Assembly: GCF_048403405.1 (NCBI RefSeq)
Contig: NZ_CP183129.1
Strand: one strand, 5' to 3'
DNA from: Escherichia coli
GTDB taxonomy: Bacteria > Pseudomonadota > Gammaproteobacteria > Enterobacterales > Enterobacteriaceae
Length of the DNA: 64,000 nucleotides
The first letter of the stretch is position 1, and the number at the start of each line of letters is the position of its first letter. This document shows positions 14,348 to 27,168 of this stretch, one piece after another. A model generated the notes under the pieces. That model saw nothing but the letters and a program-made list of their open reading frames with translations, did not search any database and was not told where the DNA came from. The position numbers and the translations under genes were made by a program.

Positions 14348-15046
14348 ATGAATAAAATCCTGTTAGTTGATGATGACCGAGAGCTGACTTCCCTATTAAA
14401 GGAGCTGCTCGAGATGGAAGGCTTCAACGTGATTGTTGCCCACGATGGGGAACAGGCGCTTGATCTTCTGGACGACAGCATTGATTTACTTTTGCTTGAT
14501 GTAATGATGCCGAAGAAAAATGGTATCGACACATTAAAAGCACTTCGCCAGACACACCAGACGCCTGTCATTATGTTGACGGCGCGCGGCAGTGAACTTG
14601 ATCGCGTTCTCGGCCTTGAGCTGGGCGCAGATGACTATCTCCCGAAACCGTTTAATGATCGTGAGCTGGTGGCACGTATTCGCGCGATCCTGCGCCGTTC
14701 GCACTGGAGCGAGCAACAGCAAAACAACGACAACGGTTCACCGACACTGGAAGTTGATGCCTTAGTGCTGAATCCAGGCCGTCAGGAAGCCAGCTTCGAC
14801 GGGCAAACGCTGGAGTTAACCGGCACTGAGTTTACCCTGCTCTATTTGCTGGCACAGCATCTGGGTCAGGTAGTTTCCCGTGAACATTTAAGCCAGGAAG
14901 TGCTGGGCAAACGCCTGACGCCTTTCGACCGCGCTATTGATATGCACATTTCCAACCTGCGTCGTAAACTGCCGGATCGTAAAGATGGTCACCCGTGGTT
15001 TAAAACCTTGCGTGGTCGCGGCTATCTGATGGTTTCTGCTTCATGA
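14348..15046 (+). CDS. cpxR: Envelope stress response regulator (OmpR family)
   Basis: The protein is 232 aa (MNKILLVDDDRELTSLLKELLEMEGF...). It has a receiver domain plus a winged-helix domain. Confidence 0.97.
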   Translation: MNKILLVDDDRELTSLLKELLEMEGFNVIVAHDGEQALDLLDDSIDLLLLDVMMPKKNGIDTLKALRQTHQTPVIMLTARGSELDRVLGLELGADDYLPKPFNDRELVARIRAILRRSHWSEQQQNNDNGSPTLEVDALVLNPGRQEASFDGQTLELTGTEFTLLYLLAQHLGQVVSREHLSQEVLGKRLTPFDRAIDMHISNLRRKLPDRKDGHPWFKTLRGRGYLMVSAS

Positions 15047-16416
15047 TAGGCAGCTTAACCGCGCGCATCTTCGCCATCTTCTGGCTGACGCTGGCGCTGG
15101 TGTTGATGTTGGTTTTGATGTTACCCAAGCTCGATTCACGCCAGATGACCGAGCTTCTGGATAGCGAACAGCGTCAGGGTCTGATGATTGAGCAGCATGT
15201 CGAAGCGGAGCTGGCGAACGATCCGCCCAATGATTTAATGTGGTGGCGGCGTCTGTTCCGGGCGATTGATAAGTGGGCACCGCCAGGACAGCGTTTGTTA
15301 TTGGTGACCACCGAAGGCCGCGTGATCGGCGCTGAACGCAGCGAAATGCAGATCATTCGTAACTTTATTGGTCAGGCCGATAACGCCGATCATCCGCAGA
15401 AGAAAAAGTATGGACGCGTGGAACTGGTCGGTCCGTTCTCCGTGCGTGATGGCGAAGATAATTACCAACTTTATCTGATTCGTCCGGCCAGCAGTTCTCA
15501 ATCCGATTTCATTAACTTACTGTTTGACCGCCCGCTATTACTGCTGATTGTCACCATGTTGGTCAGTACGCCGCTGCTGTTGTGGTTGGCCTGGAGTCTG
15601 GCAAAACCGGCGCGTAAGCTGAAAAACGCGGCCGATGAAGTTGCCCAGGGAAACTTACGTCAGCACCCGGAACTGGAAGCGGGGCCACAGGAATTCCTTG
15701 CCGCAGGTGCCAGTTTTAACCAGATGGTCACCGCGCTGGAGCGCATGATGACCTCTCAGCAGCGTCTACTTTCTGATATCTCTCACGAACTGCGCACCCC
15801 GCTGACGCGTCTGCAACTGGGTACGGCGTTACTGCGCCGTCGTAGCGGTGAAAGCAAGGAACTGGAGCGTATTGAAACCGAAGCGCAACGTCTGGACAGC
15901 ATGATCAACGATCTGTTGGTGATGTCACGTAATCAGCAGAAAAATGCGCTGGTTAGCGAGACCATCAAAGCCAACCAGTTGTGGAGTGAAGTGCTGGATA
16001 ACGCGGCGTTCGAAGCCGAGCAGATGGGCAAGTCGTTGACGGTTAACTTCCCGCCTGGGCCGTGGCCGCTGTACGGCAATCCGAACGCCCTGGAAAGTGC
16101 GCTGGAAAACATTGTTCGTAATGCTCTGCGTTATTCCCATACGAAGATTGAAGTGGGCTTTGCGGTAGATAAAGACGGTATCACCATTACGGTGGACGAC
16201 GATGGTCCTGGCGTTAGCCCGGAAGATCGCGAACAGATTTTCCGTCCGTTCTATCGGACCGATGAAGCACGCGATCGTGAATCTGGCGGTACAGGTTTGG
16301 GGCTGGCGATTGTTGAAACCGCCATTCAGCAGCATCGTGGCTGGGTTAAAGCGGAAGACAGCCCGCTGGGCGGTTTACGGCTGGTGATTTGGTTGCCGCT
16401 GTATAAGCGGAGTTAA
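15043..16416 (+). CDS. cpxA: Envelope stress sensor histidine kinase
   Basis: The 457-aa protein has the H-box SDISHELRTPLTRL and a 4-nt ATGA overlap with cpxR. Confidence 0.97.
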   Translation: MIGSLTARIFAIFWLTLALVLMLVLMLPKLDSRQMTELLDSEQRQGLMIEQHVEAELANDPPNDLMWWRRLFRAIDKWAPPGQRLLLVTTEGRVIGAERSEMQIIRNFIGQADNADHPQKKKYGRVELVGPFSVRDGEDNYQLYLIRPASSSQSDFINLLFDRPLLLLIVTMLVSTPLLLWLAWSLAKPARKLKNAADEVAQGNLRQHPELEAGPQEFLAAGASFNQMVTALERMMTSQQRLLSDISHELRTPLTRLQLGTALLRRRSGESKELERIETEAQRLDSMINDLLVMSRNQQKNALVSETIKANQLWSEVLDNAAFEAEQMGKSLTVNFPPGPWPLYGNPNALESALENIVRNALRYSHTKIEVGFAVDKDGITITVDDDGPGVSPEDREQIFRPFYRTDEARDRESGGTGLGLAIVETAIQQHRGWVKAEDSPLGGLRLVIWLPLYKRS

Positions 16417-16477
16417 ACTCGGCGCAGAGCCGTCCCCTTCGGGGTGAAGACAACAGGTCAGCACTGTGCGAACTGAT

Positions 16478-16600
16478 ACCCTCACCCCGGCCCTCTCCCT
16501 GAAAGGGCGAGGGGGAAAAACGTAGCCCTGTTCAGCAACGGAGCTGAGCACCGCTCCGGACAGTCCCCTCGCCCCTCTGGGGAGAGGGTTAGGGTGAGGG
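16478..16600. repeat. Pair of about 37-bp GC-rich repeat units in inverted orientation (boxC-like intergenic repeat; family name uncertain)
   Basis: Unit 1 (16478-16514) is ccctcaccccggccctctccctgaaagggcgagggg. The reverse complement of unit 2 (16564-16600) is ccctcaccctaaccctctccccagaggggcgagggg. They match at about 29/36 positions by eye. Confidence 0.7.
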
Positions 16601-16671
16601 GAAAAATTCAGCACAATGCAAACGGCACTGCTCTCACCGGAAACCATGCCAGATTTCGTATTAAGGCAGAC

Positions 16672-17346
16672 TTATTTTCCCCACAACCGGCGGGAAAAAT
16701 CTTCGATCTTGCCGCTCAGTCGGCGCTTTTGCATCGTCCGCGTCCAGCTTTTCGATAACCCGGCGGCGGAGAGTAAACGGTGATACTGCTCGTCATCAAA
16801 CGGCATATGCCATGCGATGGCGGCAGCCTCCTGCACGGTCACATCACTGACACGGGAAACCAACTCCAGCGGCGCATCAGCAGATACCAACCCTGGCGCA
16901 ATCACGCTATACAACCACCCCACTTTACCCGTGTTTTGCATCAACTGCGCTATATCGCTGATATCAAAATGGTAATTGAGTTTATAGCAAGGTGAGCGTG
17001 GCTGGCTGACCTGAATTAATGCCTCTCCCCAGCGGAAAATATCGCCAATATAAACATTACTTTCCGTCAGACCGTCGGTTGAGAGATTTTCGCCAAACGC
17101 AGGCGCAACAAACAACTCCGCCTGTTCCGGAAATTCCCGCGCCCAGTAGAGATAGTGCTCACGAGGATAATGACACAGCGCTCTGTCTGGCCCGCCGTGA
17201 ACCTTTTTCTCCGCCTGCTCGTCACCTTCCAGCCCCAGCTCCGTCAGCATCAACTCACCATCAACCTGGATTTTAGCAATTGCGCTGGGTTTGCCTTCGG
17301 GATAAGCCTGAATCTTGCCTGTGTATACATCAACCGGATATCGCAT
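16672..17346 (-). CDS. yiiM: MOSC-domain protein YiiM (N-hydroxylated base analogue detoxification)
   Basis: The 224-aa protein begins MRYPVDVYTGKIQAYPEGKPSAIAKIQV. It was trimmed from ORF start 17376. Confidence 0.9.
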   Translation of the reverse strand: MRYPVDVYTGKIQAYPEGKPSAIAKIQVDGELMLTELGLEGDEQAEKKVHGGPDRALCHYPREHYLYWAREFPEQAELFVAPAFGENLSTDGLTESNVYIGDIFRWGEALIQVSQPRSPCYKLNYHFDISDIAQLMQNTGKVGWLYSVIAPGLVSADAPLELVSRVSDVTVQEAAAIAWHMPFDDEQYHRLLSAAGLSKSWTRTMQKRRLSGKIEDFSRRLWGK

Positions 17347-18661: not shown

Positions 18662-19363
18662 ATCCTCCGGCATAGCCGGAGGTTTTTCAAATGCGCCTAT
18701 AAGGCTCTCTTACCAGCCGCGCCCTAACAGGCGCACACGATCTGACATTTGCATCCAACTTCGTTACTTACGGCCCGTAAACGGGCTGCCCGGATAGGGA
18801 ATCGATAACTGCTCTCCCATTTTATCCTCTTCAAGCTGGTGCTTTATGTAATCCTGTATCTTCGCCGTGTTCTTACCCACCGTATCGACGTAGTACCCTC
18901 TGCACCAGAACTCCCTGTTCCTGTATTTGAATTTCAAATCACCAAACTGCTCGTAAAGCATCAGACTGCTTTTCCCTTTCAGATATCCCATAAAGCCGGA
19001 TACGCTCATTTTGGGCGGGATCTCCACAAGCATATGGATATGATCTGCACAGCATTCAGCTTCCAGAATCCGTACACTTTTCCACTCACACAGCTTTCTC
19101 AAAATACTGCCTATTGCTCTACGCTTCTCTCTGTAGAACACCTGTCTTCGGTATTTTGGCGCAAAAACTATGTGATATTTACAGTTCCATCGGGTGTGCG
19201 CTAAGCTCTTTTCGTTCCCCATTGGGACCCCCTTTTGATTTCTTGTTTGACACTTGCAGTTGCCAGACCGCAAGGTGTTTTAACAAATCAAAAGGGGTTT
19301 TAATAACTGGCTTAAAGCTGAAAGCTTTCCGGAACCCCCAGCCTAGCTGGGGGTTTTCTGTGC
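18662..19363 (-). mobile_element. IS200 (IS200/IS605 family) insertion sequence, about 0.7 kb; ends are approximate (+/-10 bp)
   Basis: The element contains a Y1 transposase gene. The 5' terminator-like hairpin is aaccccca-gcctagc-tgggggtt (19333-19355). A long stem (about 19224-19295) sequesters the RBS. A 3' subterminal hairpin is cctccggc-ata-gccggagg (18664-18682). There are no terminal inverted repeats, as expected for this family. Confidence 0.85.
18764..19222 (-). CDS. tnpA: IS200 TnpA, HUH/Y1 single-strand transposase
   Basis: The 152-aa protein (MGNEKSLAHTRWNCKYHIVFAPKYRRQ...) has the HUH motif HIHMLV and the catalytic-Tyr region RGYYVDTVG. It was trimmed from ORF start 19273. Confidence 0.93.
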   Translation of the reverse strand: MGNEKSLAHTRWNCKYHIVFAPKYRRQVFYREKRRAIGSILRKLCEWKSVRILEAECCADHIHMLVEIPPKMSVSGFMGYLKGKSSLMLYEQFGDLKFKYRNREFWCRGYYVDTVGKNTAKIQDYIKHQLEEDKMGEQLSIPYPGSPFTGRK

Positions 19364-26159: not shown

Positions 26160-26164
26160 ACACT

Positions 26165-26290
26165 GCCTGATGCGGCGCAAGCGCCTTATCCGGCCTACGG
26201 GTCGGCAATAGTTGTAGGCCTGATAAGACGCGACAGCGTCGCATCAGGCATTGATTGCCGGATGCGGCACGAGTGCCTTATCCGGCCTAC
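26165..26290. repeat. BIME with three REP units in the rhaA-rhaD spacer
   Basis: The three REP units are gcctgatgcggcgcaagcgccttatccggcctac, gtaggcctgataagacgcgacagcgtcgcatcaggca and tgccggatgcggcacgagtgccttatccggcctac. Confidence 0.85.
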
Positions 26291-26343
26291 AGATCGTATA
26301 TCCGGCAACAGGCACGGACGTCCAATTAACAGGAACACAGAAC

Positions 26344-27168
26344 ATGCAAAACATTACCCAGTCCTGGTTTGTCCAGGGAATGATCAAAGCCACCACCGAC
26401 GCCTGGCTGAAAGGCTGGGACGAGCGCAATGGTGGTAACCTGACGCTGCGCCTGGATGACGCCGATATCGCGCCTTATCACGGCAACTTTCATGCACAAC
26501 CGCGCTATATCCCGCTCAGCCAGCCCATGCCTTTACTGGCAAATACACCGTTTATTGTCACCGGCTCCGGCAAATTCTTCCGCAACGTCCAGCTTGATCC
26601 TGCGGCTAACTTAGGCGTCGTAAAAGTCGACAGCGACGGCGCGGGCTACCACATTCTCTGGGGGCTAACTCACGAAGCCGTTCCAACCTCTGAACTTCCG
26701 GCGCACTTCCTCTCTCATTGCGAACGCATTAAAGCCACCAACGGTAAAGATCGGGTGATCATGCACTGCCATGCCACCAACCTGATCGCCCTTACCTACG
26801 TACTGGAAAACGACACCGCGGTCTTCACTCGCCAACTGTGGGAAGGCAGCACCGAATGTCTGGTAGTGTTCCCGGATGGCGTCGGCATTTTGCCGTGGAT
26901 GGTGCCCGGCACCGACGAAATCGGCCAGGCGACCGCACAGGAAATGCAAAAACATTCGCTGGTGTTGTGGCCCTTCCACGGCGTCTTCGGCAGCGGTCCG
27001 ACACTGGATGAAACATTCGGTTTAATCGACACCGCAGAAAAATCAGCACAAGTATTAGTGAAGGCTTATTCGATGGGCGGCATGAAACAGACCATCAGCC
27101 GTGAAGAGCTGATAGCGCTCGGCCAGCGTTTCGGCGTTACACCACTCGCCAGTGCGCTGGCGCTGTAA
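26344..27168 (+). CDS. rhaD: Rhamnulose-1-phosphate aldolase
   Basis: The 274-aa protein begins [37 protein letters not shown]-track start 26251 reads through the REPs and was rejected. Confidence 0.95.

Follow-up and report, generated by a model that had tools for sequence, protein, structure and literature searches.

An inverted pair of BoxC repeats in the cpxA-yiiM spacer of Escherichia coli, a minority allele in place of REP

Introduction

The BoxC repeat family of Escherichia coli was described in the 1990s, and its biophysics followed in 2015-2016. REP elements are generally described as stabilisers of mRNA 3' ends and have a dedicated transposase, RAYT; we know of no BoxC transposase. 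A 152-bp repeat called "RSA" is also listed for K-12.

Holder et al. (2015, NAR, PMC4666352) described 23 TMECO motifs in K-12 MG1655, formerly known as BoxC or PIT (potential intrastrand triplex) elements. Each motif has three blocks of 9-10 nt, the first C-rich and the other two G-rich; a loop separates the first block from the second, and a 3-nt loop (TTA in type A, CCG in type B) the second from the third. At five K-12 sites two motifs lie near one another on opposite strands, and these are always one of type A and one of type B. The same authors found neither a gene-expression pattern around the motifs nor a link to mobile elements, and reported that motif-carrying loci vary more than control intergenic regions. 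As cited there (ref. 41 in PMC4666352), an earlier study reported no promoter or terminator activity of PIT elements and no effect on RNA polymerase. Kaplan et al. (2016, PMC5100583) treated the same motifs as two conserved groups of G-quadruplex/hairpin sequences, HPG1 and HPG2, which are intergenic, often close to 3' UTRs, and paired on opposite strands. Such a motif has four G3 tracts with short loops, from which a quadruplex may form in competition with the hairpin.

Here we describe a pair of such repeats between the cpxA and yiiM genes in a stretch of 64,000 nucleotides of E. coli DNA (the window, to which all positions refer unless a K-12 coordinate is given). The element is of an already known kind, real but ordinary; it occupies a site at which other strains carry REP, and we discuss below what it may do for the transcripts that run into it.

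Results and Discussion

Gene content of the locus

Positions 16100-17000 are 100% identical to strain TUM14771 (NZ_CP128875.1), in which the annotated order is fieF, cpxP, cpxR and cpxA (+), followed by yiiM (-), kdgT and sodA. Based upon the open reading frames of the window and the PGAP annotation of this identical locus, cpxA lies at 15043-16416 on the + strand and yiiM at 16672-17346 on the - strand. The two genes are convergent, the cpxA transcript entering the element from the left and the yiiM transcript from the right, and the repeat pair sits inside their 255-bp spacer (16417-16671, stop codon to stop codon). Both units are strictly intergenic, enclosed by the stop codons of cpxA (16416) and yiiM (16672).

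An open reading frame of 90 codons (16375-16647, - strand) also runs through the repeats, and the earlier note on this DNA was right to regard it as spurious. It begins with ATG, and enterobacterial repeats often carry ORFs (Delihas, PMC2759123), but it is extremely improbable that it encodes a real small protein: it overlaps the 3' end of cpxA on the opposite strand, and the protein-coding reading was rejected on the grounds that the 90-amino acid product has no Pfam match and that PGAP leaves the frame unannotated in the identical TUM14771 locus. Its richness in P, G and R results from translation of GC-rich palindromic repeats.

The two repeat units

Unit 1 (16478-16513, - strand; CCCTCGCCCTTTCAGGGAGAGGGCCGGGGTGAGGGT) is of type B "mm", with CCG as second loop, and is an exact string match to K-12 TMECO no. 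10. Unit 2 (16566-16601, + strand; CCCTCGCCCCTCTGGGGAGAGGGTTAGGGTGAGGGG) is of type A "mm", with TTA as second loop, and matches TMECO nos. 9, 16, 19 and 22 exactly. The reference motifs are those of Table 1 of PMC4666352, where nos. 9, 16, 19 and 22 are classed as type A with one mismatched triplet and no. 10 as type B with one mismatch. Since these are exact string identities to published K-12 motifs, BoxC membership is established; judged by sequence, the units are an inverted BoxC pair (PIT elements, TMECO triplex motif). Each contains the three blocks that define the motif, and with B on the - strand and A on the + strand the pair conforms to the A-plus-B rule. Four of the five K-12 paired sites have the order motif(+) then motif(-), and lldD-trmL alone has motif(-) then motif(+), like the window. 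The G-rich part of unit 2 also fits the G-quadruplex motif family of PMC5100583.

The earlier note had guessed at a boxC-type extragenic repeat, and this is borne out by the exact copies of published BoxC/TMECO motifs and by the multicopy nature of the family. A 43-nt query made from unit 2 matched 5425 of 5426 complete E. coli genomes, at a median of 19 places per genome (range 2-34), which disposes of the possibility, also raised in that note, that the units are unique. Within the window these two are the only BoxC copies.

Some of the dimensions first given for the pair needed adjustment. Both units are present, at the exact spans given above rather than at 16478-16514 and 16564-16600. Unit 1 and the reverse complement of unit 2 are identical at 28 of 36 positions when aligned in the correct register, close to the 29 of 36 first claimed, but the coordinates that accompanied that claim are 1-2 nt out of register and give 16 of 37 when compared ungapped. 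The segment between them, which we call spacer 2 (16514-16565), had been put at about 49 nt and is 52 nt long; it is found in 943 of the 5426 genomes. It contains a small inverted repeat of its own, CGGAGC (16539-16544) and GCTCCG (16553-16558), and these two hexamers are invariant across the copies at cpxA-yiiM and at a second locus, rhaA-rhaD. The remaining observations of the earlier note held without change: each unit has an internal palindrome (CCCTCTCCC / GGGCGAGGG, with one mismatch, in unit 1; CCCTCGCCCC / GGGGAGAGGG in unit 2), and A-runs follow both units (16516-16520 and 16602-16606). The structure is real and far beyond chance; the 22-mer GGGAGAGGGTTAGGGTGAGGGG, for example, has an expected 0.00 occurrences in the shuffled window.

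Other families were considered and rejected. An E-value-mode Rfam search of 16000-17000 gave no family at its gathering score, the best candidate being Antizyme_FSE (21 bits against a required 40; E = 0.11); the candidates were eukaryotic miRNA and frameshift models, all at chance level. RU-3 of Delihas is a REP/BIME sequence, the TRIP1 repeats are unrelated elements near aqpZ, putP and yohI, and the core of ERIC/IRU shares no 9-mer with the element.

A minority allele of the cpxA-yiiM spacer

Of 5426 complete E. coli genomes, 160 have the 255-bp spacer in full, among them a strain named ST38. Its outer flanks (16417-16477 and 16602-16671) are single-copy and confined to the same 160 genomes. 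When the window was aligned with four carrier genomes, three of which had been picked as the most divergent matches, the copies proved to be about 99% identical. REP/BIME repeats fill this spacer in all the other E. coli that were examined (a K-12-like lab strain, Nissle 1917, IAI1 and two longer variants), and the BoxC and REP alleles diverge right at both stop codons. REP motifs are also found at this site in Shigella, E. ruysiae, E. whittamii, E. albertii and another Escherichia species, as judged from GTDB representatives. The spacer is thus polymorphic, holding two REPs, three REPs, other variants, or BoxC. The BoxC allele itself has no REP motif (palindromes of the type GCCGGATGCGGCG ... 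CTTATCCGGCCTAC) in 16417-16671; the same pattern gives six matches in the rhaA-rhaD spacer of the window.

That the whole spacer is a minority allele standing in place of REP was absent from the earlier note.

The composite core and its copy between rhaA and rhaD

The best non-allelic matches of the spacer lie in the rhaA-rhaD spacer of other strains. The shared part is a 152-bp composite core (16467-16618) made up of B(-), spacer 2, A(+) and short flanks. Its identity to the rhaA-rhaD copies is 90% for strains N3 and SCU-102 and 87.5% for 2015C-3121, which has the commoner variant; in TC24 the match reaches out to 16453. A 57-nt inter-unit segment (16512-16568) occurs in 943 of the 5426 genomes, in 160 of them at cpxA-yiiM and in the rest at lower identity, and the lower-identity copies inspected (2015C-3121, TC24, N3 and SCU-102) all lie between rhaA and rhaD. 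Five genomes have this segment at two places. Strain N3 carries both copies of the composite, about 9.7 kb apart, while in SCU-102 the spacer search gave a single place, at rhaA-rhaD. The rhaA-rhaD spacer of the window (26160-26344) contains three REPs and no composite. The data from the two loci together indicate that BoxC composite and REP alternate between strains at both.

The earlier note treated the pair by itself and missed that it is one copy of a larger composite common to the rhaA-rhaD spacer.

The pair sits in a larger imperfect palindrome with what appear to be decayed remnants of further units. On the left (16434-16477, + strand, boundaries approximate) we recognize a putative third unit, an A-type remnant with an internal deletion (CCCCTTCGGGGTGAAGAC), and after it spacer 1, a sequence that also occurs between the A(+) and B(-) units of K-12. 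Positions 16442-16523 align at 80-86% to the K-12 pairs at gcvP-ygfF, alx and fepB-entC, an inverted repeat joins 16440-16459 to 16470-16489, and the leader GAGCCGTCCCCT has its match immediately in front of Enterobacter A units. On the right, 16602-16645 appears to hold part of another copy of spacer 1, and CTCACCGG may be what remains of one more B(-) unit; this is the weakest call among the parts. Here 16559-16614 aligns at 88-90% to the "A unit plus following spacer" of K-12 pairs, and an inverted repeat (16586-16598 / 16633-16645) is 77% complementary. The spacer may accordingly be read as a decayed alternating array, in the probable order remnant A (about 16434-16450), spacer 1, B(-), spacer 2, A(+), partial spacer 1 and possible B remnant, the outermost remnants being weak calls.

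A composite found at only two loci, 9.7 kb apart, invites comparison with non-autonomous, MITE-like mobile elements, and one might suppose that a unit of 152-170 bp has recently been moved or copied from rhaA-rhaD into cpxA-yiiM. The copy at cpxA-yiiM most resembles (90%) the rhaA-rhaD variant of N3, which has both copies, and of SCU-102, for which the spacer search gave rhaA-rhaD as the single place. The composite is inverted at its ends and forms a long imperfect palindrome, flanked on both sides by the 7-mer TCAGCAC (16458 and 16608). Since this 7-mer falls inside the spacer 1 homology, it is not convincing as a target-site duplication. Neither locus offers a clean comparison of filled and empty sites; at both, the difference from the REP allele begins at the gene ends and takes in the entire spacer. 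As stated in the Introduction, we know of no BoxC transposase; nor did Holder et al. find a link to mobile elements (PMC4666352). A source for the unique flanks (16417-16452 and 16627-16671) was sought elsewhere in E. coli, where there is none, and in 80 cpxA/yiiM loci of related species, which gave 12-15-nt matches only. Ectopic recombination or gene conversion fits the two-locus distribution equally well, and we consider a MITE-like element unlikely.

The same site in Enterobacter

BoxC motifs also occur in the cpxA-yiiM spacer of 13 Enterobacter and related species. Those species that have two separate units show the (-)(+) layout of the window, with either type first, and a few species of the group have one intact unit only. 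In two Enterobacter species there is instead a perfect hairpin of 55-57 nt which looks like a collapsed pair; deletion of this kind at palindromic sites was described by Holder et al. (PMC4666352). Sister species have an Enterobacter-type REP in the spacer. Beyond the units, these spacers have only the short leader GAGCCGTCCCC in common with the window, and import of the allele from Enterobacter is therefore not supported.

Folding of the element

The predicted folding energy of the spacer RNA (16417-16671) is -129 kcal/mol for the + strand (z = -8.5) and -134 kcal/mol for the - strand (z = -7.6); the 200 shuffled sequences all folded less well. The earlier note had predicted a super-hairpin of about 120 nt, and in the computed folds such a structure does win: as a single hairpin a 143-nt core reaches -91.2 (+) and -86.2 (-) kcal/mol, compared with -61.4 (+) and -55.9 (-) kcal/mol for the sum of the local folds. 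With the G-quadruplex option of ViennaRNA the isolated G parts give -12.6 kcal/mol, and the full units favour hairpins, at -26.2 and -20.8 kcal/mol.

The DNA strands of such motifs can also adopt other structures. In vitro, CD and NMR showed stable triplexes for type A mm and type B mm oligonucleotides, with Tm values of 74 and 70 °C, respectively (PMC4666352), and circular dichroism demonstrated G-quadruplex/hairpin switching (PMC5100583). Hairpin, triplex or G-quadruplex structures at the DNA level may explain the frequent rearrangement of these loci. Taken to its conclusion, this gives a reading in which the pair has no role at the RNA level and is selfish or neutral repeat DNA, whose triplex, G-quadruplex or cruciform strands would disturb replication and repair and so produce the patchy distribution and the rearrangements. 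The greater variability of motif loci over control intergenic regions (PMC4666352), the polymorphism of the cpxA-yiiM spacer, the decayed remnants on both sides of the pair and the collapsed pairs of two Enterobacter species all agree with it. Against it, in vivo DMS footprinting gave no sign of a stable triplex, and the duplex outcompetes the triplex once the complementary strand is present (PMC4666352); moreover, the five aligned copies of the allele hardly vary, so that instability is not visible here, and the coincidence of RNA 3' ends with BoxC hairpins, described below, is left unexplained. As a sufficient account we find this reading possible but doubtful. It is compatible with the explanation that we prefer, namely a part for the RNA hairpins in setting 3' ends, and DNA-level effects can coexist with an RNA role.

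RNA 3' ends and the question of termination

The earlier note suggested that the pair might act as a terminator for cpxRA and might insulate it from yiiM. A bidirectional intrinsic (Rho-independent) terminator, ending transcription of both cpxRA and yiiM and insulating the two units from one another, would be in keeping with the position between convergent genes and with hairpins that are very stable on both strands. The definition of such a terminator is a GC-rich hairpin followed by a U-tract on the transcribed strand, and this combination is not found here. There is no T-run of at least four on the + strand of 16417-16671, the two T-runs of the - strand come before the hairpins and not after them, and a terminator scan in the cpxA direction found no site within the spacer. 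The study cited as ref. 41 in PMC4666352, to the extent reported there, likewise speaks against terminator activity of PIT elements.

K-12 Term-seq data bear upon the same question. RNA 3' ends were looked up, by both coordinate and motif sequence, in the supplementary tables of Adams et al. (2021, eLife, PMC7815308); the lldD stop codon and the coordinates of TMECO 7 served to check the register of the sequences printed there, in which the 3' end is the 51st base of each string. Five ends were found at BoxC or BoxC-like hairpins (all PMC7815308). The end at 3781065 (+), the "primary" lldD end, lies 4 nt after TMECO 17, the first unit of a (-)(+) pair; 164636 (+) lies 5 nt after TMECO 2; 3959467 (-), with 28044 reads and downstream of ppiC, lies 4 nt after the Watson-Crick hairpin of TMECO 20; 624567 (-), with 50300 reads, lies 12 nt after TMECO 7; and 632098 (+) is at a BoxC-like hairpin. 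These are five ends for 23 K-12 units in a partial count, compared with about one estimated by chance in intergenic DNA, where 3' ends are dense, and the enrichment is therefore modest. Neither Holder et al. (2015) nor Kaplan et al. (2016) mentions 3' ends just after BoxC hairpins.

Ends 4-5 nt past a BoxC hairpin would also be expected if transcription terminated at the hairpin. The lldD end, in contrast, has an intrinsic score of 1.32 (threshold 3), a Rho score of 1.49 and the entry "significant Rho termination region: Yes" (PMC7815308), and thus falls below the intrinsic threshold and inside a region of Rho termination. Taken with the sequence of the spacer and with ref. 41, this leaves the terminator proposed for cpxRA unsupported, and we judge a bidirectional intrinsic terminator very unlikely. 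Since the lldD end follows the first unit and not the whole pair, it also argues against the 120-nt super-hairpin as the relevant form in vivo, and suggests that the local hairpin is what matters there.

Rho-terminated transcripts are usually trimmed by 3'-to-5' exonucleases (PMC7815308). At the K-12 cpxA-yiiM locus, which has the REP allele, no cpxA or yiiM 3' end is listed in supplementary file 1 of that study; Rho termination regions are reported antisense inside yiiM (4103186, -) and inside cpxA (4103957, +). Being antisense and inside both genes, these regions indicate that the convergent K-12 transcripts read through the spacer repeat and stop some 300-350 nt into the opposite gene.

By a narrow margin of belief over doubt we favour the following explanation, in which the BoxC pair is repeat DNA kept or tolerated at gene ends, rather than an intrinsic terminator, and its RNA hairpins set stable 3' ends once Rho has terminated transcription further on, a task commonly ascribed to REP as well. 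The rightward cpxRA transcript and the leftward yiiM transcript would each first meet the C-rich version of a unit, which would fold as a GC-rich Watson-Crick hairpin. Transcription would run on, to be ended by Rho downstream, inside the opposite gene, and 3'-to-5' exonucleases would then trim the transcript back to the hairpin. Stable mRNA 3' ends are predicted a few nt past it, at about 16517-16518 for cpxA and about 16561-16562 for yiiM. We infer this 3'-end role for the BoxC allele by transfer from other K-12 loci. The mRNA-stabilising structure that the earlier note proposed as the other option finds its support in that analogy, with K-12 ends 4-12 nt after BoxC hairpins at five sites, and in nothing beyond it. 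Trimming and U-tract-independent termination at the hairpin give the same 3' ends and are indistinguishable here.

Significance

As one more copy of a known repeat family the element itself matters little. What gives the locus some value is the natural swap, REP and BoxC replacing each other at one convergent gene pair whose carriers are directly comparable. By analogy the 3'-end idea is plausible, and it lends itself readily to a test because natural strains carry either repeat at this exact position; since cpxRA is a major envelope-stress system, even small effects on expression would be of interest. The K-12 Term-seq ends just after BoxC hairpins suggest a testable function for the family, and the presence of the 152-bp composite at two loci is one of the rare indications that BoxC DNA has been copied recently.

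A broader proposal may be formulated from these observations. BoxC pairs and REP/BIME might be interchangeable occupants of one 3'-end slot, serving as an exonuclease stop after Rho, and, as a separate matter, the 152-bp composite might still be mobile (from rhaA-rhaD to cpxA-yiiM) without a known enzyme. We advance this tentatively and would sooner expect it to fail than to hold. Were the slot interchangeable, this would explain why the cpxA-yiiM spacer holds BoxC or REP in both Escherichia and Enterobacter; and either point, if true, would supply what the repeat family has lacked since the 1990s, a function or a mobility mechanism.

Comparison with known systems

The closest described system is the BoxC/PIT/TMECO family itself, with which the element shares sequences identical to listed K-12 units, an intergenic position, multiple copies, the inverted pairing of A with B and a strain-variable locus. 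By comparison, the cpxA-yiiM locus of K-12 carries no BoxC. The (-)(+) layout of the window is found in one of the five K-12 pairs; its spacer is longer (52 nt) and has a small hairpin of its own, and the pair is flanked by decayed remnants of further units. The individual pair most like it is that of K-12 lldD-trmL (TMECO 17 and 18, NC_000913.3 3781028-3781156), which has the (-)(+) layout directly after a stop codon and a spacer of similar length (59 nt, versus 52 nt in the window). The two differ in that the A and B types stand in swapped order, the spacer sequences are weakly similar (about 72% overall), and the flanking genes are co-directional at lldD-trmL whereas those of the window are convergent.

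The MITE-like elements ERIC/IRU (RU-1) and YPAL (RU-2) of Delihas (2007/2011, PMC2759123, PMC3184786) resemble the composite in size (about 150 bp), in being long imperfect palindromes and in their intergenic position with spurious ORFs. Unlike them, the composite has only two genomic homes, and it lacks a clear target-site duplication.

REP/BIME, finally, is found between the same two stop codons, those of cpxA and yiiM, and is, like BoxC, a GC-rich palindromic multicopy intergenic repeat often arranged in inverted pairs. The two have no sequence similarity, and BoxC differs further in possessing a third block, which permits triplex or G-quadruplex folding.

Alternation of REP and BoxC at two loci

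The rhaA-rhaD spacer of the window (26160-26344) contains three REP elements, whereas the four copies of this spacer inspected from other genomes (4/4) each carry one REP together with a composite paralogous to the 152-bp BoxC composite of the window's cpxA-yiiM spacer. The arrangement of one REP plus BoxC composite between rhaA and rhaD appears to be shared by approximately 780 other E. coli genomes. Since the window has three REPs where these have a REP and a BoxC composite, REP and BoxC alternate at two loci which lie 9.7 kb apart.

In Enterobacter, too, the cpxA-yiiM spacer carries an Enterobacter-type REP in some species and a BoxC pair in others, a parallel to the E. coli polymorphism that may reflect common ancestry, transfer or repeated colonisation; the contrast is between loci L048, L091, L067, L050 and L076 on the one hand, and L059, L087, L075 and others on the other. 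In Enterobacter asburiae TN152 (L078) and Enterobacter sp. ECC-175 (L086) the spacer consists of one near-perfect hairpin of 55-57 nt, laid out as two C-blocks, a loop and two G-blocks, which looks like a BoxC inverted pair after deletion of its inner halves. Unusually long cpxA-yiiM spacers were observed in E. coli ECGI0523 (L021; 683 bp) and Citrobacter sp. wls619 (L031; 452 bp).

Relationship to TUM14771 and N3

An IS200-type transposase gene (18767-19222, minus strand; Pfam Y1_Tnp, E = 3.8e-38) is located between kdgT and sodA. This gap is ~970 bp in the window as against 260 bp in TUM14771 and N3, two of the E. coli strains carrying its BoxC allele; the window strain is therefore distinct from both, with an additional IS200 copy.

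BoxC in K-12 and on plasmids

A very strong Term-seq 3' end is recorded in the fepB leader of K-12 (NC_000913.3, 624680, minus strand), with 103563 reads (LB, OD 0.4; supplementary file 3) and 243213 reads (supplementary file 1 tab), and with low Rho and intrinsic-terminator scores (PMC7815308). It lies 4 nt upstream of the BoxC unit TMECO 8, not downstream.

When 5426 complete E. coli genomes were searched with a 43-nt BoxC unit, 365 of the 96761 matches were plasmid-borne, in contrast to the report of Holder et al. that BoxC motifs are not associated with plasmids, phages or transposons (PMC4666352).
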